DNA from: Nevskiaceae bacterium
Lineage (GTDB): Bacteria > Patescibacteriota > Microgenomatia > PFEM01
Reading direction: 5' to 3'
Assembly (NCBI GenBank): GCA_035527075.1
Contig: DATLBE010000039.1
Coordinates: 1 to 51,813 of the forward strand
Length of the DNA stretch: 51,813 bases
The translations under genes were made by a program, and so were the position numbers. Numbering within the stretch: the first letter of the stretch is position 1; every line of letters begins with the position of its first letter. Shown here one piece after another: positions 2,610 through 44,010 of this stretch. Under the pieces are notes generated by a model that did not search any database, was not told the origin of the DNA, and was given only the letters and a program-made list of their open reading frames with translations.

Positions 2610-2642
2610 AGCCTAATTCTATCATAAAAGAGCGGTGAAGGA

Positions 2643-2762
2643 TTATCGCTTGGGAGACTGTTTTTTGCGTCGGGCTTTGCCGCCGAGGCCGGGTTTGCGG
2701 CGTTCGCGGGCGCGGGGGTCGCGGGTAAGAAGCTTGTATTTTTTTAAAGAGGAATAATACAG
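2643..2762 (-). pseudogene. duplicated 3' fragment of rpsI (last 39 codons plus stop), no 5' part
   Basis: Hand translation in the S9 frame gives LYYSSLKKYKLLTRDPRARERRKPGLGGKARRKKQSPKR*. The intact rpsI tail at 3771-3890 reads LYHAALKKHKLLTRDPRARERRKPGLGGKARRKKQSPKR*. The offset is exactly 1128 nt. Confidence 0.85.
2686..2726. repeat. 41-nt GC-rich identical core of the rpsI-tail duplication (copy 1)
   Basis: AGGCCGGGTTTGCGGCGTTCGCGGGCGCGGGGGTCGCGGGT is identical to 3814-3854. It is 33/41 G+C and contains TCGCGGG twice, 15 nt apart. Confidence 0.85.
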
Positions 2763-3745
2763 AGTATCTTGGGAAGATAGGGTAATTGGTCAAGGCTAAA
2801 AAGGGGCAATTGAATACCGATATCCTGATTAGTATCTCCCTCGGTAGCGCTAAATAATAAAACTTTTTTTTCTTTTTTTAATCCTTCCCATTTTTGCTTG
2901 TATTCTGGGGATAAATAATTTTTCATTTCACTTTCTATTTCAAATACTCTGCGAGGGGAAACAACTGTTTCTTCTGCTATTTTCAATATTTCATTTTCCA
3001 GACCACGATTAAAGTAAGGATAATAGTAAGGATAATCATCACTTTCGAAAGGCACAAACCATTCAGCCGTCGTCTTTATCCGCTCGTATTCTCCCCAATG
3101 CAGTTTCTCTTTATACCACTCCAGCTGAAAAATAATGGCCTCCCAAATTCCTAAATCTTCAACCAGGCGACGAGCCATACTCTCTATGGGAACGTCAAAT
3201 AAATTGGCTAATTTCATTAAGAAATGAGCTCCAAAATTTGGTTCACCTGGTTTGGGAAATTTACTCACTTCTCTTTCTAATAATTCCGATGGTATTAAAA
3301 GCTCGCGGGCAAAGTTATCGCAGAAACGCTCTACTATTATTTGTCTCAAATCTTTGGGGAGATTGGGCCTTAGAAAACCGATAGAGTCTACCCTGTAAAA
3401 AAATGTATGTCCAACCTCGTGAGCGATAGTAAAACGTCTTTCCGCTGAAGAAAGTCCTTCTCTTGATGAGATTATAAAGCCGGCTTTCACTTTTCTACCA
3501 GCTAGTATGTCAGCAGTCGGTATGAGCAACCCCATAGCTGACCCATCGTAGCCAATTTTTTTCACCAACCTTCTAGCTGCAATCGGTTCTGGCTCCACAG
3601 GGAAAACTCCCCACTGCTTTGTCTCCACTAGCAATTCTTTAGCTATTCTTTCTACGCCTTCAATTGGTGATTTTTCCGAAGAAGACCGAAATTCTTCTGG
3701 AAGATAATTAAAGACAGAAGCCAATTGTCTTTCTCGATTAATCAT
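2744..3745 (-). CDS. ImmA/IrrE-family (M78-like) zinc metallopeptidase domain protein with an uncharacterised C-terminal half
   Basis: RRFTIAHEVGHTFFY (HExxH) followed by CDNFARELLIPSELL, the typical ImmA/IrrE arrangement. No Xre-type partner is adjacent. Confidence 0.65.
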   Translation of the reverse strand: MINRERQLASVFNYLPEEFRSSSEKSPIEGVERIAKELLVETKQWGVFPVEPEPIAARRLVKKIGYDGSAMGLLIPTADILAGRKVKAGFIISSREGLSSAERRFTIAHEVGHTFFYRVDSIGFLRPNLPKDLRQIIVERFCDNFARELLIPSELLEREVSKFPKPGEPNFGAHFLMKLANLFDVPIESMARRLVEDLGIWEAIIFQLEWYKEKLHWGEYERIKTTAEWFVPFESDDYPYYYPYFNRGLENEILKIAEETVVSPRRVFEIESEMKNYLSPEYKQKWEGLKKEKKVLLFSATEGDTNQDIGIQLPLFSLDQLPYLPKILCIIPL

Positions 3746-3770
3746 ACTTTAAAGGGCTTGGGTGCAAAAA

Positions 3771-4193
3771 TTAACGTTTCGGGCTTTGCTTTTTTCTTCT
3801 GGCTTTACCACCAAGGCCGGGTTTGCGGCGTTCGCGGGCGCGGGGGTCGCGGGTTAAAAGTTTGTGTTTTTTTAAAGCGGCGTGATAAAGCTCTTTGTTT
3901 TCTTTATCCAAGGCCCGAGCGACTCCGTGAACAACAGCGTCTAATTGGCCTTGTCTGCCTGAGCCAACAACTTTAATGGTAGCGTAAAATTTGCTTAGGG
4001 AATCAGTGACCTGAAAAGGTTTTTGGTATTTGGCTTTGGCAACGTCACTCGGAAAATACTCTTCAATCGGTTGATTATTAACCAAAGTTTTGCCTTTACC
4101 CCGGAAAAGTCTAACTCTAGCAGAGGCTGTCTTTCTTCGACCAACCGCGTAAACGCAAGCTTTTTTTCGGGGCTTAGATTTAGTTTTTGGCAT
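3771..4193 (-). CDS. rpsI: 30S ribosomal protein S9
   Basis: Full-length S9 with the universal C-terminal ...ARRKKQSPKR. Confidence 0.97.
   Translation of the reverse strand: MPKTKSKPRKKACVYAVGRRKTASARVRLFRGKGKTLVNNQPIEEYFPSDVAKAKYQKPFQVTDSLSKFYATIKVVGSGRQGQLDAVVHGVARALDKENKELYHAALKKHKLLTRDPRARERRKPGLGGKARRKKQSPKR
3814..3854. repeat. 41-nt GC-rich identical core of the rpsI-tail duplication (copy 2, inside intact rpsI)
   Basis: Identical to 2686-2726. Confidence 0.85.
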
Positions 4194-4611
4194 CTTTCTT
4201 CCCTAGTTTATTTTTATAAGGGTGTTTTTCATCAACAAAAATTTTTAATCTGGCTAGCCTTGGACTCCTGAGTTTGTTTTTGGGCAACATGCCGGAAACA
4301 GCATGACGGATAATTTTTCTGGGGTCCAAAGCCTGCTGTTGAGCGAAAGTAATTTCTTTAAACCCACCAGGATAGCCTGAATGGCGATAATACATTTTTT
4401 GGGCTCTTTTTTTGCCAGTCACTTTGACTTTGGCGACGTTAGTCACCACCACATAATCACCACAATCAAGATGGGAAGTATAATAGGGCTTGCTTTTGCC
4501 CATCAAAAGTAAAGCAATCCGGGAAGACAGACGCCCCAAAATTTTATCTTGGGCGTTAATAAGATGCCAACTTTTTTTGATTTCACTTTTTTTGGTTGCT
4601 TTTGTTTTCAT
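4180..4611 (-). CDS. rplM: 50S ribosomal protein L13
   Basis: MKTKATKKSEIKKSWHLINA aligns with the canonical L13 N-terminus ([20 protein letters not shown]), so the start is at Met13 of the ORF. It overlaps the rplQ end by about 29 nt. Confidence 0.93.
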   Translation of the reverse strand: MKTKATKKSEIKKSWHLINAQDKILGRLSSRIALLLMGKSKPYYTSHLDCGDYVVVTNVAKVKVTGKKRAQKMYYRHSGYPGGFKEITFAQQQALDPRKIIRHAVSGMLPKNKLRSPRLARLKIFVDEKHPYKNKLGKKDAKN

Positions 4612-16990: not shown

Positions 16991-17610
16991 GTTTTCTCCA
17001 ACTTAGAAACTGCTTCTTCCATTAAAACCATCTTGCCACCATTCAAAACTGCAAAAGTATTTAATAAATCAGCTTGAATTAAATTCAACTTTTCAATATT
17101 TTGGCCAGCCCGAAATACATTGTCTAGTTTGGCAGGCATGACTAATAAAGTTTTTAACTGCTCTAATTGCAAATTTTTCAATACCCTGGCCATTTCCTTT
17201 GTCTTCGGTTTCACTTTAGCAAGACCACTTACCACCAAAATTTCTTTATCCTTAAGCTTGGCGCTTAAGGACGAAAAAAGCGCAGCCCGCTTCATTTTTT
17301 TACTCATTTCTAATTTAAAATTTTGGTTGCCTCTTGGCCCATGGGCAACACCGCCACCAACAAAAATTGGTGCATAACGATCACCATGACGAGCCCGTCC
17401 TGTCCCTTTTTGGCGCCAAATCTTTCTACCCGAACCAGAAACCTCTCCGCGGCTTTTGGTTTTGGCATGAACCTTTCTTTGATTAGTCAAATAAACTTTA
17501 ATTGCTTGGGCCATGAGCGGCTCATTAACTTTGGCCGCAAAAATCCTTGGAGGAAGATTAATTTCCCCTGATTTTTTACCGCTGGTGTTTAACAAGGCTA
17601 TTTTAGGCAT
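16981..17610 (-). CDS. rplD: 50S ribosomal protein L4
   Basis: ...RKIWRQKGTGRARHGD.... Confidence 0.96.
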   Translation of the reverse strand: MPKIALLNTSGKKSGEINLPPRIFAAKVNEPLMAQAIKVYLTNQRKVHAKTKSRGEVSGSGRKIWRQKGTGRARHGDRYAPIFVGGGVAHGPRGNQNFKLEMSKKMKRAALFSSLSAKLKDKEILVVSGLAKVKPKTKEMARVLKNLQLEQLKTLLVMPAKLDNVFRAGQNIEKLNLIQADLLNTFAVLNGGKMVLMEEAVSKLEKTWI

Positions 17611-18214
17611 TTTGTTTTCTAATAATTAAAAAACCGTTTTTAGGACCAGGCAATAAGCCCTTAATTTCTAACAAATTATTCTTATCATCAACCTCAGTGA
17701 CTGTTAAACCAGAAATAGTCACTTTTTGACCACCAGCCCTACCAGGCATTTTTTTGCCCTTGTATACTCGACCAGGTGTCGTCCCTTGACCAATTGAACC
17801 TGGCGCTCTTTGCCGATCTGACTGGCCATGAGTTCTTGGGCCGCCTTTAAAACCCCATCTTTTCATCACACCAGTAAAACCCTTACCTTTTGACTGACCC
17901 GTCACTTTTACCTTGTCACCCACTTTAAAAACTTGACCGACTTTTATTTCATCTCCAATTTTAAGTCTGGGCAACTTGTCAACTCTGAATTCTCTCAAAA
18001 ATTTAGGAGCCGTTTTTGATTTGGCTCCTTTTTTTGGCTTTACTTTCTTTTCACCGAATCCAAACTGAATTGCGTTATAGCCATCCTTGCCAAGAGTTTT
18101 AATTTTGGCCACCTTGCAAGGGCCAGCCATAACCTGACTGACCGGCATTCGCCAGCCTGCTTTGTCAAATTTTTGAACCATATCAAGTTTTGTTCCTAAA
18201 ATTGCGTTTGTCAT
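17603..18214 (-). CDS. rplC: 50S ribosomal protein L3
   Basis: ...FKGGPRTHGQSDRQRAPGSIG.... Confidence 0.96.
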   Translation of the reverse strand: MTNAILGTKLDMVQKFDKAGWRMPVSQVMAGPCKVAKIKTLGKDGYNAIQFGFGEKKVKPKKGAKSKTAPKFLREFRVDKLPRLKIGDEIKVGQVFKVGDKVKVTGQSKGKGFTGVMKRWGFKGGPRTHGQSDRQRAPGSIGQGTTPGRVYKGKKMPGRAGGQKVTISGLTVTEVDDKNNLLEIKGLLPGPKNGFLIIRKQNA

Positions 18215-18245
18215 TTTCCCTTTATCCTGAACGTAGTCGAGGACA

Positions 18246-18270
18246 CCAAAAAGAGTGCCGGAGGCACTCT
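18246..18270 (-). terminator. intrinsic-terminator-like hairpin (possible attenuator) in the rplC leader
   Basis: Minus strand reads AGAGUGCC-UCC-GGCACUCU, a perfect 8-bp stem, followed by UUUUU. It lies about 32 nt upstream of the rplC ATG. Confidence 0.45.
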
Positions 18271-18338
18271 GATTTCAGACTCCTTTAATAAACTAAGCCT
18301 TTATGACGAGCTTATCACCTCCATTTTAAGATAGGGAA

Positions 18339-18367
18339 ATTATATAACATTAGCCACGAAGATGCAA
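18339..18367 (-). promoter_or_regulatory. sigma70-like promoter facing rplC
   Basis: Minus strand reads TTGCAT (18367-18362), a 17-nt spacer, then TATAAT (18344-18339). It lies immediately downstream of the rpsJ tail fragment. Confidence 0.4.
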
Positions 18368-18375
18368 GAAGAAAA

Positions 18376-18432
18376 TTACATTTTTATTTCTATATCAACG
18401 CCTGCCGGAAGGTCAAGGTGCACGAGAGAGTC
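18376..18432 (-). pseudogene. duplicated 3' fragment of rpsJ (last 18 codons plus stop)
   Basis: Translates to [18 protein letters not shown] versus [18 protein letters not shown] in intact rpsJ (19288-19344). The offset is 912 nt and 51/57 nt are identical by hand alignment. Of the 5 sense-codon differences, 4 are synonymous. Confidence 0.85.
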
Positions 18433-18435
18433 ATA

Positions 18436-18444
18436 TGATAAAAT
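18436..18444 (+). promoter_or_regulatory. extended -10 element (TGaTAAAAT) upstream of the nucleotidyltransferase gene
   Basis: TGATAAAAT lies about 28 nt upstream of the ATG at 18473. There is no convincing -35. Confidence 0.3.
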
Positions 18445-18472
18445 AATCATAGAAGCGGGAAAATTGGGCAGT

Positions 18473-19285
18473 ATGACTAATCCTAAAATCATCATTTCCA
18501 GGTTAAAAAAAGAATTAGAAAAAAACCCCCTTGTAGTTGGGCTAGTTTTAGTGGGCTCACAAATAAGAAAGACCATTTACATTGCCAACTCTTATTCGGA
18601 CATGGAAGTTTATATCATTGTCAAGGACGGCAATGAGGAAAAAATTGAGAAACAATTACCTAGTTTAGTGAATAAATTAGGTAAAGTGATTTTTTCTTAT
18701 AAAAATCAATGGGCGGGTTTTTCGACAGTTTTCGAAAATTTATTTAGGTTAGAACTACCAATCGTTAAACTTTCTGAGATAAATTCGGTTTTTTCTCGAC
18801 CAACCACTCAACCCGTTAAGGCTCTTATCGACAAAACTAATGGCCGACTGGATAAAGCCTTGACATCTCGCCCTAAAACTCTGAATTTCCAAAAATTGTT
18901 CCAAGATAAAGTAGTTGATTTCTGGTATATGGCTATTGTGGCTATCCAATATTATAAAAAGGATGAAGTCTATAATGCCCGCAAAGCACTTCATTTAATT
19001 CAATCTTCGCTCATTAAATTCTTTGAACTTTTAAATGACCCCAAAATATTACTCCTAGAAACAAACAAAATGATTGAACAATTCTTATCTCCACCACAAA
19101 TTAAACTACTTAAAGAAATAAGCCCTTCTTATGAGAAAAGCCAAATAAAACAAGCGCTGATTGGAACGATAAATATTTTTTCCGATGTGACAAAAGAAAT
19201 ATCAAAGAAACACAATTATAACTACCGCAGAGAAATCGAAAAAAAGATAAAGTCAAAACTTTTAAGACATTTGGCTGAGAATTGA
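18473..19285 (+). CDS. nucleotidyltransferase, ANT(6)/AadK-like (aminoglycoside 6-adenylyltransferase family fold)
   Basis: From Met38 of the ORF: VVGLVLVGSQ...SDMEVYIIV (GS...DxE), RLELPIV (third acidic residue), VKALIDK, and FWYMAIVAIQYY...ALHLIQSSLIKF. By recall these align with AadK motifs LEGSR...DYDISYFV, LDLTLIP, VKVLLDK and FWMVSTYVVKG. The first 37 ORF codons are antisense to the rpsJ fragment and are probably not translated. Confidence 0.6.
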   Translation: MTNPKIIISRLKKELEKNPLVVGLVLVGSQIRKTIYIANSYSDMEVYIIVKDGNEEKIEKQLPSLVNKLGKVIFSYKNQWAGFSTVFENLFRLELPIVKLSEINSVFSRPTTQPVKALIDKTNGRLDKALTSRPKTLNFQKLFQDKVVDFWYMAIVAIQYYKKDEVYNARKALHLIQSSLIKFFELLNDPKILLLETNKMIEQFLSPPQIKLLKEISPSYEKSQIKQALIGTINIFSDVTKEISKKHNYNYRREIEKKIKSKLLRHLAEN

Positions 19286-19287
19286 GA

Positions 19288-19596
19288 CTACATTTTTATC
19301 TCAATATCAACACCTGCAGGAAGGTCAAGGTGCATGAGAGAGTCAATTGTTTTATCAGTGGGTTCTAAAATGTCAATCAGGCGTTTGTGGGTTAGAATTT
19401 GAAAGTGTTCGCGGGCGTCTTTGTCAGTAAAAGGAGAAGTAGTGACGGTAATGAGTTTTCTTTTAGTGGGTAGGGGCACTGGCCCCACCACCTTGGCTCC
19501 TGTAACCAAGGCTGTCTCGAGAATTTTCTCGCAACTTTCATCAATAACTCGATGATCGTACGATTTTAAACGTACTCTGATTCTGCCTTTTGGCAT
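19288..19596 (-). CDS. rpsJ: 30S ribosomal protein S10
   Basis: [17 protein letters not shown]...[14 protein letters not shown]. Confidence 0.97.
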
Positions 19597-20867: not shown

Positions 20868-23018
20868 TTATTTCTCAACCGGTTTACCCATTTTGGCAGC
20901 CACAATTTTTTCTGTAATATTGGCGGGTGTTTCTTGATAATGGGATGGCTCCATATAAAAACTTGCCCGTCCCTGGGTTAAACTGCGCAACATCGTCGAG
21001 TAACCCCGAACCTCAGCCAATGGAATCAAAGCAGTAATAATTCTAACCGCCTCTCTCACTTGGGTATCTAAAATTTGGGCTCTTTTGCTAGATAAGTCAC
21101 CAATCACTTCACCCATAAATTTTTCTGGCGTGGTCACTTCAAGCCTCATAATTGGCTCAAGCAAAACTAGGTTAGCTCTCTTAACTGCCTCCTGAACGGC
21201 AACTGAACCGGCAATTTTAAAAGCAATTTCTGAAGAATCAACCTCATGGTAGCTACCATCATAGACCGCCACCATCATATCTACCAAAGGATAGCCAGCC
21301 AATACCCCTTTTTCCATCGCCTCTTTAACCCCCTTTTCAATAGCTGGAATAAATTCAGAAGGAATGGCTGTCCCTCGAATCTCGTTTTTAAACTCAAAAC
21401 CTTCACCGCGCTGCTTGGGCTCAACCCGTAAAAAACAATGGCCATATTGACCCCGACCGCCTGACTGGCGAATGTACTTACCTTCGGCCGCGGCTGTTTT
21501 TTGAATGGTTTCTTTATAAGCAACCTGGGGTTGTCCAGTGTTGGACAAAACATTGAATTCCCGCTTCATCCGGTCAACCAAAATCTCTAAGTGAAGTTCA
21601 CCCATGCCAGAAATGATAGTCTGGCCTGTTTCCCGATCAGTTTTAATCTTAAAAGTAGGATCTTCTTCAGAAAGCCTTTTTAAAGCATAGCCTAATTTTT
21701 CCTGATCAGCCTTGGTTTTTGGCTCAATGGCCAGAGAAATCACTGGCTCAGGAAAGGCAATTGATTCTAAAAGAATGGGTTTGTCTTTTTGACATAGAGT
21801 ATCACCGGTGGTGGTTTCTTTCAACCCAACCACGGCTACAATCTCGCCGGCCATAGTGGAGCCAATCATTTCTCGCTGATTAGCGTGCATCAAAAGAAGT
21901 CTGCCAGCTCGCTCCTGGCGATGCTGGGTGCTATTCCAAACTGTTTCACCTGACTTTAAAGTACCTGAATAAATCCTCAAATAAGTCAACCTGCCAACAT
22001 GAGGATCAGTTTGAATTTTAAAAGCAAGAGCGGCAAAAGGGCCATTAGGATCAGTTTCTCTGGTTTCTTTTTGGTTTGTTTCAGAATTAATACCTTCAAT
22101 CACCGGCACATCAAGCGGGCTGGGCAGAAAATTAACCACACCATCAAGCATAACCTGAACGCCTTTATTTCGGAGCGAAGCCCCACAGTAAACCGGCACA
22201 AACTTATTGGCAATCGTGGCTTTTCTTAATGCCTTTTTCAACTCTACCACCGAAACCTCTTCTCCTACTAAATATTTATCCATTAATTTTTCATCGTTTT
22301 CAGCAATCTTTTCCACCAACTCTTCTCTTGTCTTTTTAAGTTGCTTTCTTAAGTCTCCAGGCACTGCCACTTCTTGAAATTTTTCACCAGTTTCATCATC
22401 TTCAGGCCAAATTAAAGCTTTTTCTTCCAAAACCAAAACCACCCCTCGAAAATCTTTCTCCTTGCCAATGGGTAAGGTCATAATCGCCGGCTTGGCTCCC
22501 AATCTATCTTCAACCATCTGTACTGTCCGGTCAAAATTAGCGCCTAACTTGTCCATTTTATTGATAAAACAAATTCGAGGTACTTGGTATTTATCCGCCT
22601 GGCGCCAGACTGTTTCTGACTGAGACTGAACCCCTTCTTCAGCATCAAAAACAACCACTCCGCCATCCAAAACTCGCAAAGAGCGTTCCACTTCGGCGGT
22701 AAAATCAATGTGGCCAGGCGTGTCAATGATATTAATACGGTAAGAATCTTTGGGAACTGCTCCCTCTTCTTTAAGCATCCAAAAAGTTGTCGTCGCTGCC
22801 GACATGATGGTAATTCCCCTTTCTTTCTCTTGTTCCATCCAATCCATTTGGGTCGTACCCTCATCAATGTCACCAATTTTGTAAGTTCTGCCAGTGTAAT
22901 AAAGGATTCGCTCAGTGGTGGTAGTTTTACCAGCATCAATATGGGCAATAATCCCAATATTACGGATTTTTTCCAAAGGGACAATTCTTTTTTTGACGGT
23001 TTCGCTTACTTCTGCCAT
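20868..23018 (-). CDS. fusA: elongation factor G
   Basis: [10 protein letters not shown]...[16 protein letters not shown]. The start is at Met23 of the ORF. Confidence 0.97.
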
Positions 23019-23031
23019 ATTTCTATTATAT

Positions 23032-23057
23032 AAAAAACCGCTTCCTAAAAGAAGCAG
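23032..23057 (-). terminator. intrinsic terminator-like hairpin between the small membrane gene and fusA
   Basis: Minus strand reads CUGCUUC-UUUUAG-GAAGCGG, a 7-bp stem with one G.U pair, followed by UUUUUU. The U-run ends 13 nt before the fusA ATG. Confidence 0.45.
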
Positions 23058-23158
23058 TTCAAAGCTTCGAAAGTATTTTAACAAAAACTGAAGAATGATT
23101 CAAGCAAAAAAAACGGTGGGTAACCTTAACATGACTGTTTTGGCTGCCCGCCAGAGGG

Positions 23159-23395
23159 TTATTCCTGGCTCTTCAGCCTGTCTTTCGTTTTCCGAACTCC
23201 AGCCCTGCCGAAGGCCGGTAATAGCCTAAGCATTACCACAATCACCACAATGCCCAAGACTGTAGCATAAGGCTTTGTGTTGGTCTCGCTTGGTGGTGCC
23301 GGCGTGAATGGTTTCCAAATACCCCCCTCATATGCTATGGTCGACCCGATGACCACCAACAAAAGGAAAAAAACCACTCCCACTAATTGCTTCAT
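23159..23395 (-). CDS. small hypothetical membrane protein (78 aa, two predicted TM helices)
   Basis: MKQLVGVVFFLLLVVIGSTIA...YATVLGIVVIVVMLRLLPAF. A strong SD (AGGGAGGAAAGTA-ATG) precedes Met25 of the ORF. The region looks more GC-rich than its neighbours by eye. Confidence 0.6.
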   Translation of the reverse strand: MKQLVGVVFFLLLVVIGSTIAYEGGIWKPFTPAPPSETNTKPYATVLGIVVIVVMLRLLPAFGRAGVRKTKDRLKSQE

Positions 23396-23438
23396 TACTT
23401 TCCTCCCTAAATGCTGTTGGAAAAGAGCCACTAGTAAC

Positions 23439-23467
23439 AATATATCATAAACTATAGGATTTATCAA
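23439..23467 (-). promoter_or_regulatory. sigma70-like promoter with extended -10 for the small membrane gene
   Basis: Minus strand reads TTGATA (23467-23462), a 17-nt spacer, then TGaTATATT (-10 at 23444-23439). Confidence 0.45.
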
Positions 23468-23547
23468 GCAGGGGAGGCAGAGAGACTACCAACGAAAATA
23501 AGAACCTTTCGCTTTGCTCAAGAACCTTGTTTCATCTGGCAGCCTTG

Positions 23548-24027
23548 CTACCATCTGAAATGAGCAAATGCTCTATTGGCTTCGGCCATTCTATGAATAT
23601 TTTCTTTTTTCTTAACCGCGCCGCCTTCTCTTTCGACCGCATCCAAAATTTCGGCAGCTAATTTCTGGCTAAAAATATGGTACTCTTTGTTGGGCCTGGC
23701 TTGAGCTGCCTGAATTAACCAACGAATGGCTAAGGTCTCTCGACGACCACCTCTGACAGGTATCGGTACCTGGTAAGCCGCACCACCAACCCTTCTGGGT
23801 CTAACTTCCATACTTGGTTTAATATTTTCTAAAGCCTGAGTGAAAATCTCCAGTGGCTCCTTTTTGGTCTTTTTTTTAACCAATTCAAAAGCTTGATAAA
23901 CATGTTCTTGGGCGACAGTTTTTTTACCTGACCGCATCACCCGATTAATTAAACGAGTTATCAACTGGCTGTTGTAAACCGGGTCAGGGGGCAAAATTCT
24001 TTTTTTAACTTTTTCACTTCTTGGCAT
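23548..24027 (-). CDS. rpsG: 30S ribosomal protein S7
   Basis: Canonical S7 ending ...AEANRAFAHFRW. Confidence 0.97.
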   Translation of the reverse strand: MPRSEKVKKRILPPDPVYNSQLITRLINRVMRSGKKTVAQEHVYQAFELVKKKTKKEPLEIFTQALENIKPSMEVRPRRVGGAAYQVPIPVRGGRRETLAIRWLIQAAQARPNKEYHIFSQKLAAEILDAVEREGGAVKKKENIHRMAEANRAFAHFRW

Positions 24028-42495: not shown

Positions 42496-43136
42496 AAAAT
42501 TTTAAGTTGTTCTTGTTGACTCTCTTGTTTTTTTTCCTTAACTGTTTCTTCAACTGGCTCTAATTCATCTTCCAAAAATTTGGAAATCTTCTGAAAATCC
42601 TTTTTTAATTCTGTCATTATTCTACCATTTCTTAAACCAGCAGCTGGGTGATACATGGGTATAACAATAAAACGCTTACCGTTAAAATCGACAAATCTTC
42701 CCTGACCATGAACTTGAGAAATGTATTCACCTGGTAAAAATTTATTCATCGAAAATCTGCCTAAAGTGACAATAATTTTGGGATCGACAATTTCAATTTC
42801 TTTGTCCAAATAGGGTCTAAACGCCTCTATTTCCTCAGCCAGTGGGTCACGATTCTCTGGGGGTCTTGCTTTCACTACGTTACTTATATAAACCTCATTG
42901 CGCTTTAAACCAACCGACTTTATCAGTTGGTCAAGCAATTTTCCAGCGTTCCCCACAAATGGACGACGGAGTTTTGCCTCCCAGTACCCACCCGCTTCTC
43001 CTATGAACATAATTTTTGCGTTATACTTCCCCTCACCGAAAATTACATCTGTCGGTTTCTTAATCAAAGGCAATCTACCTGCTTTTGATTCCAACTCTTT
43101 TTTAAGTTCTTCCAGCTGCCTTTTTTTATCGGTCAT
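42492..43136 (-). CDS. uracil-DNA glycosylase superfamily protein (family 4-like, cysteine-free)
   Basis: GEGKYNAKIMFIGEAGGYWE...PFVGNAGKLLD...HPAAGLRN. There are no Cys residues at all. Confidence 0.8.
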   Translation of the reverse strand: MTDKKRQLEELKKELESKAGRLPLIKKPTDVIFGEGKYNAKIMFIGEAGGYWEAKLRRPFVGNAGKLLDQLIKSVGLKRNEVYISNVVKARPPENRDPLAEEIEAFRPYLDKEIEIVDPKIIVTLGRFSMNKFLPGEYISQVHGQGRFVDFNGKRFIVIPMYHPAAGLRNGRIMTELKKDFQKISKFLEDELEPVEETVKEKKQESQQEQLKIL

Positions 43137-44010
43137 TAATTACTCCCCTTCTTCTAATCTCTGTAAATGGTGGTCTTACCTTTGTTTTAATCAGCCAGCG
43201 ATATATAGAAGAATGGTGTACGCCTAACTTATCTGCTATTTGTGGACCATTATAGCCTGCCCTCCAAAACTTAGTAAGTATCCTGTTCATTGATTCTTGA
43301 AACTCTCTTTCTATCTTCCGCCATTTTCTTCCCCCAGATTTTACCCATTCATATAACTCTTTGGCTTTTTTACACTGCTTGTATTTTCTCTCCATGAATA
43401 AATCGTTGTTTTCAAGATTGCCATAAAGAAAAGTCAAAACCCTGTAAGCATTCTCCCAAAAGTAATCTACTTGATAGCTAATAGAACTAATTCCCTTTCC
43501 CGTTATTTTGCTTTTCGTTCGAAGATTATTAGTTGTAAAATCAAGAGTCTTAGTTATTTTGTTGCTAAGCTGGGAGAGGAATTTCTCGCTGCCGCTTGAA
43601 AAACCAACAGAAATCTCGTTTCTGCTCTCACGAATATAAATCCAACCATCGCCGTCGAAAAAACCACGAGCAAAATGAGAAAATAACTGCGGAGGAACCA
43701 TGGGGAGTTGAATCGAACTACTTTTATTAGGATAAACTCCCAAATTCTGAAGATCATTAACAACTACCGGATTTGAAATTCTCAATCTAAATGAAGCTTT
43801 GCGCTTGTGAATCGGATAATTCGAACCCATTGTTTGGTTAATCCTCTCGAGCAATTCTCTATCTTGTTTTAAATCCCAAGCTAAAACAGTTTTATAAACA
43901 TTACCATCTGCAAAAGTAAATCCCAAAATATACGCCATCTGCGGTATCCATCTTTTAAAGAAATCGATATTAACTCTGTAATCAAATCTATTCCAATTTA
44001 TACTATTCAT
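43126..44010 (-). CDS. double-motif LAGLIDADG homing endonuclease with a C-terminal HTH domain, free-standing
   Basis: YILGFTFADGNV and FARGFFDGDGWI are two LAGLIDADG motifs. The C-terminal GYNGPQIADKLGVHHSSIYRWL is HTH-like. Confidence 0.8.
   Translation of the reverse strand: MNSINWNRFDYRVNIDFFKRWIPQMAYILGFTFADGNVYKTVLAWDLKQDRELLERINQTMGSNYPIHKRKASFRLRISNPVVVNDLQNLGVYPNKSSSIQLPMVPPQLFSHFARGFFDGDGWIYIRESRNEISVGFSSGSEKFLSQLSNKITKTLDFTTNNLRTKSKITGKGISSISYQVDYFWENAYRVLTFLYGNLENNDLFMERKYKQCKKAKELYEWVKSGGRKWRKIEREFQESMNRILTKFWRAGYNGPQIADKLGVHHSSIYRWLIKTKVRPPFTEIRRRGVINDR

Follow-up and report, generated by a model that had tools for sequence, protein, structure and literature searches.

Integron gene cassettes and pdif (Xer) modules are small resistance-gene modules that carry no recombinase of their own, and the fda locus of Streptococcus thermophilus is a known site of CIMEs, islands that are flanked by att sites and lack recombination genes. 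Elements with a tyrosine integrase integrate in the 3′ end of rpsI, rplL, rpmG, or rpmE and leave direct repeats (PMC5357655); streptococcal IMEs and ICEs at ribosomal-protein gene 3′ ends include IMESag-rpsI (PMC5357655, PMC5090054). Such streptococcal elements measure at least several kb and bring mobilisation genes as well as a tyrosine or serine integrase of their own.

The locus described here is the rpsJ–rplC junction on the minus strand of a 52-kb stretch of DNA, analysed as a whole and referred to as the window, from an uncultured Microgenomates (CPR) bacterium. A preliminary description had placed a head-on nucleotidyltransferase (NTase) gene and a second copy of the rpsJ tail between intact rpsJ and rplC, and every element of that layout was recovered to the base.

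19288–19596, minus strand: intact rpsJ (uS10), 102 aa (PF00338, 115 bits; NCBIfam 30S S10, 144 bits)
19288–19344, minus strand: repeat copy A (attL-like), the last 18 codons and stop of intact rpsJ (direct repeat, alignment)
19288–19290, minus strand: rpsJ stop, TAG
19286–19287: 2-nt spacer between the NTase stop and the rpsJ stop
19283–19285, plus strand: NTase stop, TGA
18473–19285, plus strand: NTase gene, 270 aa, LinB/ANT(6) family (PF04439), convergent (head-on) with rpsJ
18433–18472: 40-nt spacer and NTase promoter region
18436–18444, plus strand: extended −10-like element TGATAAAAT for the NTase gene, 28 nt before its ATG (identified by eye)
18433–19287, plus strand: cassette proper, 855 nt, made up of the 40-nt promoter region, the NTase gene, and 2 nt
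18376–18432, minus strand: repeat copy B (attR-like), displaced untranslated rpsJ tail with a TAA stop
18215–18375: 161-nt spacer between copy B and rplC
18339–18367, minus strand: rplC promoter-like element, TTGCAT (18367–18362), 17 nt, TATAAT (18344–18339), from the sequence
18245–18270, minus strand: terminator-like hairpin AGAGTGCC-TCC-GGCACTCT and T-run, 30 nt before the rplC ATG, a candidate attenuator
17603–18214, minus strand: rplC (uL3), first gene of the downstream ribosomal-protein unit (window ORF; Ribosomal_L3 call in L010)

The NTase gene is the sole sizeable ORF between the repeats. A 307-aa ORF starting at 18362, reported by some gene callers, was rejected as an over-extension through the remnant tail; homologues are 266–275 aa long, starting at the 18473 ATG. 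The −10-like element TGATAAAAT, absent from the list returned by the promoter scan, is a putative promoter, and the promoter region is conserved in a diverged relative (L011). rpsJ is complete and rplC keeps its promoter and leader, which still adjoin the displaced tail, so the insertion harms neither of these essential units. An empty site would read rpsJ joined directly to the TTTTCTTCTTGCATC spacer, and a circular cassette would read ...GAGAATTGAGA, one tail copy, then ATATGATAAAAT.... No empty site was found, every contig with an identical rpsJ carrying the insert, and contig searches returned no circular form or donor. A search of metagenome_contigs for an exact 31-mer of the rplC leader found 0 matches, that collection evidently not containing the JGI contigs having it, and scans of viral contigs with rpsJ and with the NTase returned nothing.

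Copies A and B are offset by 912 nt and identical at 51/57 nt. The view that the insertion is bracketed by a duplicated rpsJ tail, with mostly silent differences and a sharp end to the homology, was borne out by alignment and by a direct-repeat scan: five of the six differences keep their meaning, TAG/TAA included, and the similarity extends no further than the stop codon at one end and codon 85 at the other. Were the six differences all random substitutions, so few non-synonymous changes would be expected with p ~0.002. Across the whole window the scan found only three direct repeats of at least 30 nt within 5 kb, of which the rpsJ-tail repeat is one and the rpsI site another. Copy B is partly decayed in L011, and parsimony using L011 and a further contig, L012, suggests that the rpsJ copies were nearly identical at insertion and that copy B drifted afterwards. 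A signal of a foreign tail is strong only at rpsI and at a second rpsJ-site case (L044), not at the rpsJ repeat of the window. By codon usage the intact tails look more host-like, a comparison confounded in rpsI by a GC-rich identical block. In a native-tail test against 20 related species the tails (63–82% nt identity) were too diverged to separate copy A from copy B, and comparison of L041, another rpsJ–rplC junction, with L044 singled out neither tail as native. A 12-nt inverted match adjoining both repeat copies (18436–18447 and 19346–19357) was taken as chance, because AT-rich DNA such as this contains many matches of the kind and one of the two arms is the −10 region of the NTase gene.

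The parallel that had been drawn with the rpsI site was confirmed by the same scan and by alignment, with the following features.

2642–3890, minus strand: rpsI site overall
3770–3890: rpsI tail
2744–3745: IrrE/ImmA-like M78 peptidase gene, the rpsI-site cargo
2642–2762: displaced rpsI tail, 121 nt, 81%

The rpsI tails differ at 18 nt over the last 35 codons, with 13 changed codons synonymous and 1 not (p < 5e-5); the synonymous changes include AGC/TCT, AGA/CGC, and TTA/CTT. Fusion of the M78 gene to the rpsI remnant by −1 frameshift was considered and rejected, there being no slippery heptamer in the zero frame. L044 is an independent rpsJ-site case with a different antisense cargo and a 45-nt repeat, in which 4/4 differences are synonymous (p = 0.004). 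Judged by this synonymous pattern at rpsI and L044, the tail copies come from functional genes. Each of the three units (rpsJ, rpsI, and L044) is ~0.9–1.1 kb and consists of exactly one intact gene with 2–40 nt extra. The rpsJ and rpsI repeats were found to have no common sequence pointing to one recombinase for both.

As with the streptococcal IMEs and ICEs, insertion is at the 3′ end of a ribosomal-protein gene that is left intact (rpsJ is full length here), and direct repeats (here 57 nt, 51/57 identical) include the gene's end. Some rpsI-specific streptococcal integrases are associated with long repeats, and rpsI is also a target in the window; rpsJ is not among the targets quoted from PMC5357655. 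Unlike those elements, the cassette is 855 nt long with one non-recombinase gene, resides in a CPR host, has no tyrosine or serine recombinase of its own, and is flanked by imperfect repeats that differ mainly at synonymous sites. CIMEs likewise combine att-type repeats with the lack of an integrase, their recombinase being thought to be supplied in trans, but they are larger and are read as ICE deletion derivatives, whereas here there are three compact single-gene units, the one at rpsJ apparently younger than its flanks. Integron cassettes and pdif modules offer the likeness of a single-gene, ~1-kb mobile unit relying on a recombinase encoded elsewhere. No convincing attC-like imperfect palindrome or dif-like site was seen at the cassette ends, however, nor an end inverted repeat, and no intI was found in the window; the ends are instead copies of a host gene's coding tail, and the cassette carries its own promoter-like (extended −10-like) element. 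There is no transposase and there are no terminal inverted repeats of the IS or transposon kind, and the duplication made by such elements is 2–15 bp, as against imperfect repeats of 57 nt here and 121 and 45 nt at the other two sites.

Comparison with L011 was used to gauge the age of the cassette. The cassette is 92% identical (pS 0.22, 95% CI 0.16–0.30), whereas rpsJ is 87%, tuf 84%, rplC 83%, and rplD 84% identical, with pS of 0.41–0.50 (CIs 0.33–0.64), the baseline for older flanks being these four genes of a 3.2-kb contig rather than the genome as a whole. Identity is uniform at 92% up to both edges and falls right at 18433 and at about 19287. The cassette thus looks younger than the surrounding genes and, being more similar than flanks at 83–87%, looks laterally exchanged with sharp ends. 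From these sequence comparisons we infer that it passed between related lineages after their core genomes had diverged. In a survey of rpsJ–rplC junctions, 0/80 related species had the NTase gene at this site, and homologues at 46–68% identity sit in unrelated contexts, which together argue for insertion and not for an ancestral state.

The NTase matched PF04439 ("streptomycin adenylyltransferase"; Adenyl_transf) at 58.4 bits against a cut-off of 22, residues 17–261 aligning end to end with profile positions 17–274 of 279. The cargo had been called ANT(6)-like, which holds at the superfamily level; ANT(6) proper is not supported, since the NCBIfam ANT(6) equivalogs NF033084 and NF033387 gave only 29 bits against 420 and 24.8 against 450, respectively, and LinB is nearer. 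Scores for the NCBIfam Lnu models were similarly low (Lnu(H), 24.3 bits against 540; Lnu(G), 18.5 against 525), and no NCBIfam resistance-gene equivalog cut-off was reached. By both profile and fold, the nearest solved structure is the lincosamide nucleotidyltransferase LinB (PDB 3JYY). A single-sequence search of the PDB returned nothing, and a family profile was needed, which gave LinB at E 8e-13 over residues 1–258 and ANT(6) at E 1e-6. Foldseek with an AF2 model (pLDDT 93.9) gave LinB 3JYY at E 1.6e-14 and TM 0.82, and ANT(6) at TM 0.67 (8VXB, ANT(6)-Ib) or 0.42. The model has the predicted two-domain LinB/ANT(6) fold, with an N-terminal Pol-β-type NTase domain and a C-terminal helical domain. 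The metal-binding Pol-β motif, which aligns to the LinB GS...DIE...GE, is present, with Gly-28, Asp-43, and Glu-94 invariant and Ser-29 and Glu-45 nearly so among 42 homologues. LinB/Lnu(B) (3JYY) and ANT(6) (2PBE, 8VXB) have in common with this protein the two-domain fold, PF04439, the G-S...D-x-E motif, and a third carboxylate, but identity to either is only ~18% and the NCBIfam scores are far below cut-off. With dN/dS of 0.17 against L011, we infer that the gene is under purifying selection. The predicted enzyme most likely attaches a nucleotide to a hydroxyl group on some small molecule; a plausible substrate is an antibiotic that targets the ribosome, such as those of lincosamide or aminoglycoside type.

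No match to the NTase was obtained by tblastn in 72,556 plasmids or 50,697 phages, and homologues were assigned to Microgenomates candidate phyla by those sources that name them. Flanking repeats were not found around the homologues in L001, L002, and L005. Those flanking the homologue in L125 and L149 were rejected because they duplicate a short conserved ORF lying upstream and do not mark the ends of a cassette, and the repeat in L020 proved to be a paralogous SNase C terminus and not the tail remnant of a comparable layout.

Regarding the insertion site, the premise that rpsJ is normally followed directly by rplC is false in this phylum, where the usual spacer is 100–250 nt. The gene had further been described as embedded antisense in the S10 operon; the antisense orientation stands, but the gene splits no operon and is located between two transcription units. 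This follows from the promoter-like hexamers of rplC, its leader hairpin, and the presence of cargo at the junction elsewhere, and the site is the boundary between a tuf–rpsJ unit and a separately promoted rplC unit. In 17/75 related species (~23%), 0.5–2 kb of unrelated cargo lies between rpsJ and rplC. L041 carries other cargo at nearly the same position and lacks any duplication, so the hot spot does not always work by tail duplication. The rplC promoter-like element begins 9 nt after the stop of the remnant; both hexamers are conserved in L011 and the 17-nt spacer varies. With only a 3/6 match at the −35 it was missing from the scan list, and its promoter function is putative. A hairpin comparable to that of the rplC leader was present upstream of rplC in 57/73 related loci, and Rfam gave no known RNA family in the window or at the junction. 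The S10-operon leader of Escherichia coli is an L4-controlled attenuator. There too a terminator-like hairpin stands in the leader directly before the first gene of a large ribosomal-protein operon, but it precedes rpsJ, whereas the leader in the window precedes rplC, has no Rfam match, and is a candidate for regulation. Ribosomal-protein leaders are reviewed in PMC3616713. That the cassette lies next to ribosomal genes is probably due to a permissive hot spot whose flanking homology is conserved, and not to a functional link, and the connection with ribosome-targeting drugs may be a coincidence of that hot spot.

The best reading of the locus, to which we assign a rough probability of 0.55, is that one crossover inside the gene tail brought in a cassette that lacks a recombinase and is exchanged between lineages. 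Incoming DNA, probably circular, would have carried the cargo beside a copy of the rpsJ tail, and one reciprocal crossover would have joined the chromosomal tail to the incoming copy. The two tail copies would then be attL/attR-like products of a Campbell-type, tail-restoring integration. As the cassette has no recombinase, the catalyst of the crossover would have acted in trans: the homologous recombination machinery of the host, following uptake of the DNA, or else a site-specific recombinase whose gene lies elsewhere or has since disappeared. Scans of the cassette and of non-ribosomal ORFs across the 52-kb window detected no domain of a recombinase or transposase. We lean only slightly towards host recombination. 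An imperfect homology of 45–57 nt is little for RecA to act on. Patescibacteria are documented to be capable of natural competence and homologous recombination (PMC10633639).

A single ancestral illegitimate, or homology-facilitated illegitimate, insertion after DNA uptake seems unlikely to us. Its distal joint would have fallen inside the rpsJ tail and duplicated it in place, with later homologous exchange lowering the divergence of the cassette. The near identity of the rpsJ copies at insertion suggested by parsimony, the competence known in the group, and the other junction types seen at the site in L041 would all suit such an event, and selection could enrich tail duplications, since only joints that spare the rplC promoter, 9 nt past the stop, survive. 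In-place duplication cannot, however, yield the synonymous-only divergence of rpsI (p < 5e-5) and L044; later homologous exchange should drag the flanks along, yet the match to L011 weakens at the edges of the cassette; and the architecture arose at least three times.

It is also improbable that the cassette is what decay has left of a larger prophage, ICE, or IME that bore an integrase and had its attB at the rpsJ 3′ end, that is, a CIME-like island in which both att sites and one cargo gene are left after internal deletion. The streptococcal precedents do include integration at ribosomal-protein gene 3′ ends with direct repeats and many decayed elements, and the rpsI-site cargo is an IrrE/ImmA-type M78 peptidase. 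Peptidases of this type are typical of mobile-element regulatory modules. Random decay should, however, leave varied sizes and gene fragments, whereas the three cases are alike in size with one intact gene each, and the cassette is uniformly 92% identical to L011 up to both edges. Nor was an integrase remnant seen in the 52-kb window, or an integrase among the largest ORFs scanned in 22 occupied rpsJ–rplC gaps.

Support for the junctions comes from assembled contigs. The same arrangement, as far as the contigs reach, was found in ENA ERZ27256827/-34/-28, JGI 3300031566 and 3300037245, and Logan SRR8554511 and SRR8554643. These assemblies come from different pipelines and different samples and include strain variants at 97–99.9% identity and one relative at ~85–92%. 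The 2-nt junction (19286–19287) is identical in L011 and is expanded by a 13-nt tandem duplication in L012, L095, and L096. Contigs L096 and L097, which end inside the cassette, might suggest that the repeated 57-mer gave rise to a chimera or misassembly. This is highly improbable, as the junctions recur across assemblies, pipelines, and samples, strain variants and the diverged relative included, and the copies differ at 6 positions with each consistently linked to its own flank.

The terminator-like hairpin before rplC recurs across the group and is a candidate for a new element regulating ribosomal-protein genes, and the LinB/ANT(6)-fold clade placed in Microgenomates may be an environmental reservoir of enzymes acting on ribosome-targeting antibiotics. 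Gene gain in CPR bacteria is poorly understood, with few recognisable mobile elements in their very small genomes. This locus shows a compact, sharp-ended, one-gene unit without a recombinase, seemingly younger than its surroundings. Should this mechanism prove general, ribosomal-protein genes would offer cross-lineage landing pads in their coding tails, and direct repeats of gene tails that differ synonymously would be a signature by which such cassettes could be found in any genome. Possibly, though we put this forward only tentatively, CPR/Microgenomates bacteria contain a class, so far undescribed, of minimal cassettes with a single gene and no recombinase, which carry a 3′ tail mimic of highly conserved essential genes (rpsJ, rpsI), rebuild their target, and hop between diverged lineages. 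Were such a class to exist, the most conserved coding sequences of the genome would be used as portable homology or att sites, and this could be a main route by which tiny competent genomes acquire accessory, resistance-like, and defence genes.

The rpsJ–rplC region of the window was re-examined from its sequence and ORFs, and the layout claimed in the preliminary description was exact at every coordinate:

19288-19596, minus strand: intact rpsJ, TAG stop
2 nt: junction between the nucleotidyltransferase (NTase) ORF and rpsJ
18473-19285, plus strand: NTase ORF, 270 aa
40 nt: spacer between the NTase ORF and the displaced rpsJ tail
18376-18432, minus strand: displaced rpsJ tail (the remnant), last 18 codons plus stop
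161 nt: spacer between the displaced tail and rplC
17603-18214, minus strand: rplC

Alignment of the two rpsJ tails likewise bore out the claimed duplication, with 51/57 nt identical at an offset of 912 nt; one difference changes M to V and the other five, TAG to TAA counted, keep the meaning. The likeness is bounded by the stop codon and by codon 85. Just three direct repeats of at least 30 nt within 5 kb occur in the whole window, the longest being that of the rpsI site. The same arrangement was present in ENA, JGI and Logan contigs as far as each reaches (strain variants at 97–99.9% identity; two of these contigs stop inside the cassette), and also in a more distant relative, L011. A 307-aa ORF called by some pipelines was rejected as over-extended, since it runs through the remnant tail; the 18473 ATG is where homologues begin. 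Strain-variant contigs L012 (~1398-1425), L095 and L096 have 13 nt repeated in tandem (ACATTTTTATCTC twice) precisely where the NTase and rpsJ stops meet, a change that turns the rpsJ stop from TAG into TGA.

The cargo had been described as ANT(6)-like. Its membership of PF04439 stood, the threshold being passed end to end with 58 bits, but the protein proved nearer to LinB than to ANT(6). It scored far below all the NCBIfam equivalog cut-offs for ANT(6), AadS, Lnu(H) and Lnu(G), and a PDB search with the single NTase sequence gave no match. A 42-member family profile matched LinB (3JYY) at full length with an E value of 8e-13, compared with 1e-6 for Bacillus ANT(6) (2PBE), and the AlphaFold model (pLDDT 94) superposed best on LinB (TM 0.82) and next on ANT(6)-Ib (TM 0.67). 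Within the family G28, D43 and E94 are invariant and S29 and E45 nearly so, and all five align with LinB catalytic residues. On this Pfam, profile, fold and residue evidence, the protein is a LinB/ANT(6)-superfamily member, nearer LinB, with its predicted active site intact; the dN/dS of 0.17 against L011 indicates that selection preserves the gene. The 40-nt segment contains an extended -10-like element (TGATAAAAT, 18436-18444), which L011 keeps.

More than 130 NTase homologues were found, the named ones in Microgenomates phyla; plasmid and phage collections yielded none. The named homologues and the relatives of rpsJ assign the window to Microgenomates (CPR/Patescibacteria). Homologues at other loci show no linkage to rpsJ, and position beside ribosomal genes seems to reflect the landing site, not what the enzyme does. 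At L127 (2018-3807), from another Microgenomates lineage, rpsI is followed 580 nt downstream by a homologue, with a 117-aa ORF before it, recA after it and tail duplication absent. A short conserved ORF ends just before the homologue, ~120-170 nt upstream, at loci L122, L125, L138, L139, L143, L148 and L149 (MACKANKIVRLRNGLLPLKDLFCNHKLGFNFTLEDMKIVTSSIQSINFVMLK in L125, core LPLKDLFCNHK); it has extra copies nearby in L125 and L149, is absent from the window cassette, and may encode either a leader peptide of the sort that precedes inducible resistance genes or a small partner protein. Around another homologue and its neighbours, an intergenic repeat of ~80-140 nt occurs three times at 83-92% identity (L008, 1791-1930, 3418-3495 and 4823-4964), adjoining two tRNA genes, a GIY-YIG gene and an AbiEii gene, with no Rfam match.

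To define the normal state of the site, rpsJ loci from 80 species-level genomes were surveyed, in 75 of which both rpsJ and rplC were found. None of the 80 has this NTase gene between rpsJ and rplC. Nor is rplC the immediate neighbour that had been supposed; the usual spacer is typically 100-250 nt. Other DNA of 0.55-2.1 kb occupies the gap at 17/75 loci, encoding an acyltransferase, an AAA_14/DUF4143 ATPase, Fic, a cation-efflux protein, a CAP-domain protein, an FtsJ methyltransferase, DinB with NUDIX, a racemase, a peptide deformylase and several ORFs without a Pfam match; in loci with no rplC detected, an SNase or an ABC transporter (the latter in L051) lies 3' of rpsJ. The rpsJ–rplC junction is thus an insertion hot spot across related species.

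Within the 161-nt spacer, promoter-like hexamers on the rplC strand (TTGCAT, 17 nt, TATAAT; 18367-18339) are followed by a GC-rich hairpin with a T-run (18270-18245, minus strand), 30 nt before the rplC ATG. L011 keeps both hexamers, with the 17 nt between them changed. Terminator-like hairpins at most 90 nt upstream of rplC were detected in 57/73 related loci and in 1/73 shuffled sequences, by a lenient detector that also fires in 24/73 coding controls. They lie 5-73 nt (median 18) before the start codon; across Microgenomates loci the stem sequences vary and pairing is kept, with no Rfam match. The interval after the hairpin is too short for a promoter, and the hairpin therefore looks like an rplC-operon leader attenuator. 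Judged from these elements, rpsJ looks like the close of one transcription unit and rplC like the opening of another with an attenuator-like leader, which places the cargo in a gap between two units and not, as first proposed, inside the S10 operon. The rplC -35 element starts 9 nt past the native rpsJ stop, and when an insertion duplicates the tail, rpsJ stays complete and the native tail, the promoter and the leader are all preserved. The NTase gene and rpsJ are convergent with 2 nt between their stops and no convincing terminator between them, and their transcripts probably overlap in antisense. The rpsG–fusA gap (23019-23547, minus strand) is unusual at 530 nt; it holds a 102-aa ORF (23159-23467) without a Pfam match, and the fusA and rpsG 5' ends share a weak 30-nt repeat (80%; 22978-23007 and 23990-24019), which may be chance.

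The rpsI site (2642-3890, minus strand) has the same architecture of intact gene, cargo and displaced tail, as had been claimed:

3771-4193, minus strand: intact rpsI
2744-3745, minus strand (same strand as rpsI): IrrE/ImmA-like M78 peptidase gene, 333 aa, spaced 25 nt from rpsI
2642-2762, minus strand: displaced rpsI tail, 121 nt

Over their last 35 codons the rpsI tails differ at 18 nt, and 13 of the 14 codon changes are synonymous, among them multi-base substitutions (AGC/TCT, AGA/CGC, TTA/CTT); the sole non-synonymous change is H/Y. Random substitution gave this synonymous bias in 0 of 20,000 trials. Since both copies must have evolved within functional genes, one rpsI tail is foreign in origin. 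A 41-nt identical GC-rich block lies mid-repeat; by codon usage the intact tails look more host-like, but this block is itself atypical for the host. Weak likeness may extend beyond the rpsI stop codons, and both downstream ORFs begin ATGATTA. In a different lineage, L044 (3269-4331) repeats this architecture independently, with rpsJ, an antisense 291-aa ORF (3318-4193) unrelated to the NTase and without a Pfam match, and then an rpsJ-tail copy (4287-4331); all four differences in its 45-nt repeat are synonymous. The foreign-tail signal of the window rpsJ copies is weaker than at rpsI and L044. Parsimony with L011 and L012 as outgroups assigns most rpsJ-tail differences to the remnant lineage, which would fit copies that were nearly identical at insertion. 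In L041, which is closely related to L044, a different pair of small antisense ORFs lies 10-20 nt past the rpsJ stop and no duplication is present, so the hot spot would partly reflect permissiveness, beyond a tail-crossover mechanism. Elsewhere in the window, a free-standing 294-aa LAGLIDADG-like ORF with an HTH domain (43126-44010, minus strand), between uracil-DNA glycosylase and Lon-like AAA genes, may be a homing-endonuclease-type insertion.

The window and L011 were aligned over the whole locus.

Identity between the window and L011 (segment; nucleotide identity; pS with 95% CI)
NTase gene; 92.0%; 0.22 (0.16-0.30)
40-nt promoter segment; 92.5%; not applicable
rpsJ; 87%; 0.50 (0.37-0.64)
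tuf (part); 84%; 0.49 (0.39-0.58)
rplC; 83%; 0.41 (0.33-0.51)
rplD (part); 84%; 0.45 (0.36-0.54)
rplC leader; 74%; not applicable
remnant rpsJ tail; 47%; not applicable

The high-identity block runs from 18433 to ~19287, with a drop within a few bases at both edges, and the 2-nt NTase/rpsJ junction is identical in the two lineages. With half the silent-site divergence of its flanks (the 'core' baseline being four genes on one 3.2-kb contig), the cassette would have become common to both lineages after the core-genome split, with precise ends; the pattern is most simply explained by post-split exchange of the cassette as a unit.

We favor integration of a cassette, itself laterally exchanged, by crossover within the gene tail (probability about 0.55). 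Incoming circular DNA carrying a tail copy would undergo a single crossover with the chromosomal tail, giving an intact gene, the cargo, and a displaced tail joined to native downstream sequence; the same structure is also left by integrases targeting gene 3' ends. No recombinase was found in the cassette or across the 52-kb window, nor any sequence common to the rpsJ and rpsI repeats that would point to one recombinase for both. The crossover could be catalyzed by host homologous recombination after DNA uptake or by a site-specific recombinase in trans, and we lean slightly to the former. Natural competence and homologous recombination have been shown in Saccharibacteria (PMC10633639). Ribosomal-protein tails are the best cross-lineage homology on offer.

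One illegitimate insertion with in-place duplication and later exchange is unlikely: at rpsI and L044 the tails have diverged almost solely by synonymous changes, and identity breaks off sharply at the edges of the cassette. Decay of a larger element is a shade more doubtful, the units being compact and identity to L011 uniform. Misassembly is scarcely credible: the arrangement, recurring in other contigs, is not an assembly artefact.

Streptococcal integrative mobilizable and conjugative elements are documented to insert at the 3' ends of rpsI, rplL, rpmG and rpmE, leaving direct repeats, and decayed derivatives are numerous (PMC5357655). The present cases share the ribosomal-protein gene 3' end as target and the direct repeats, but have no recombinase, are single-gene units of ~0.9-1.1 kb in three separate cases, and carry long, imperfect, unequal repeats (45, 57 and 121 nt). 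Tail-restoring integration at a ribosomal-protein gene 3' end is thus of a known kind; what is new here is the form, a minimal cassette without a recombinase, found in a CPR bacterium and showing signs of recent lateral exchange. For CPR gene flow, the locus provides a model open to testing and a signature that is simple to search for.
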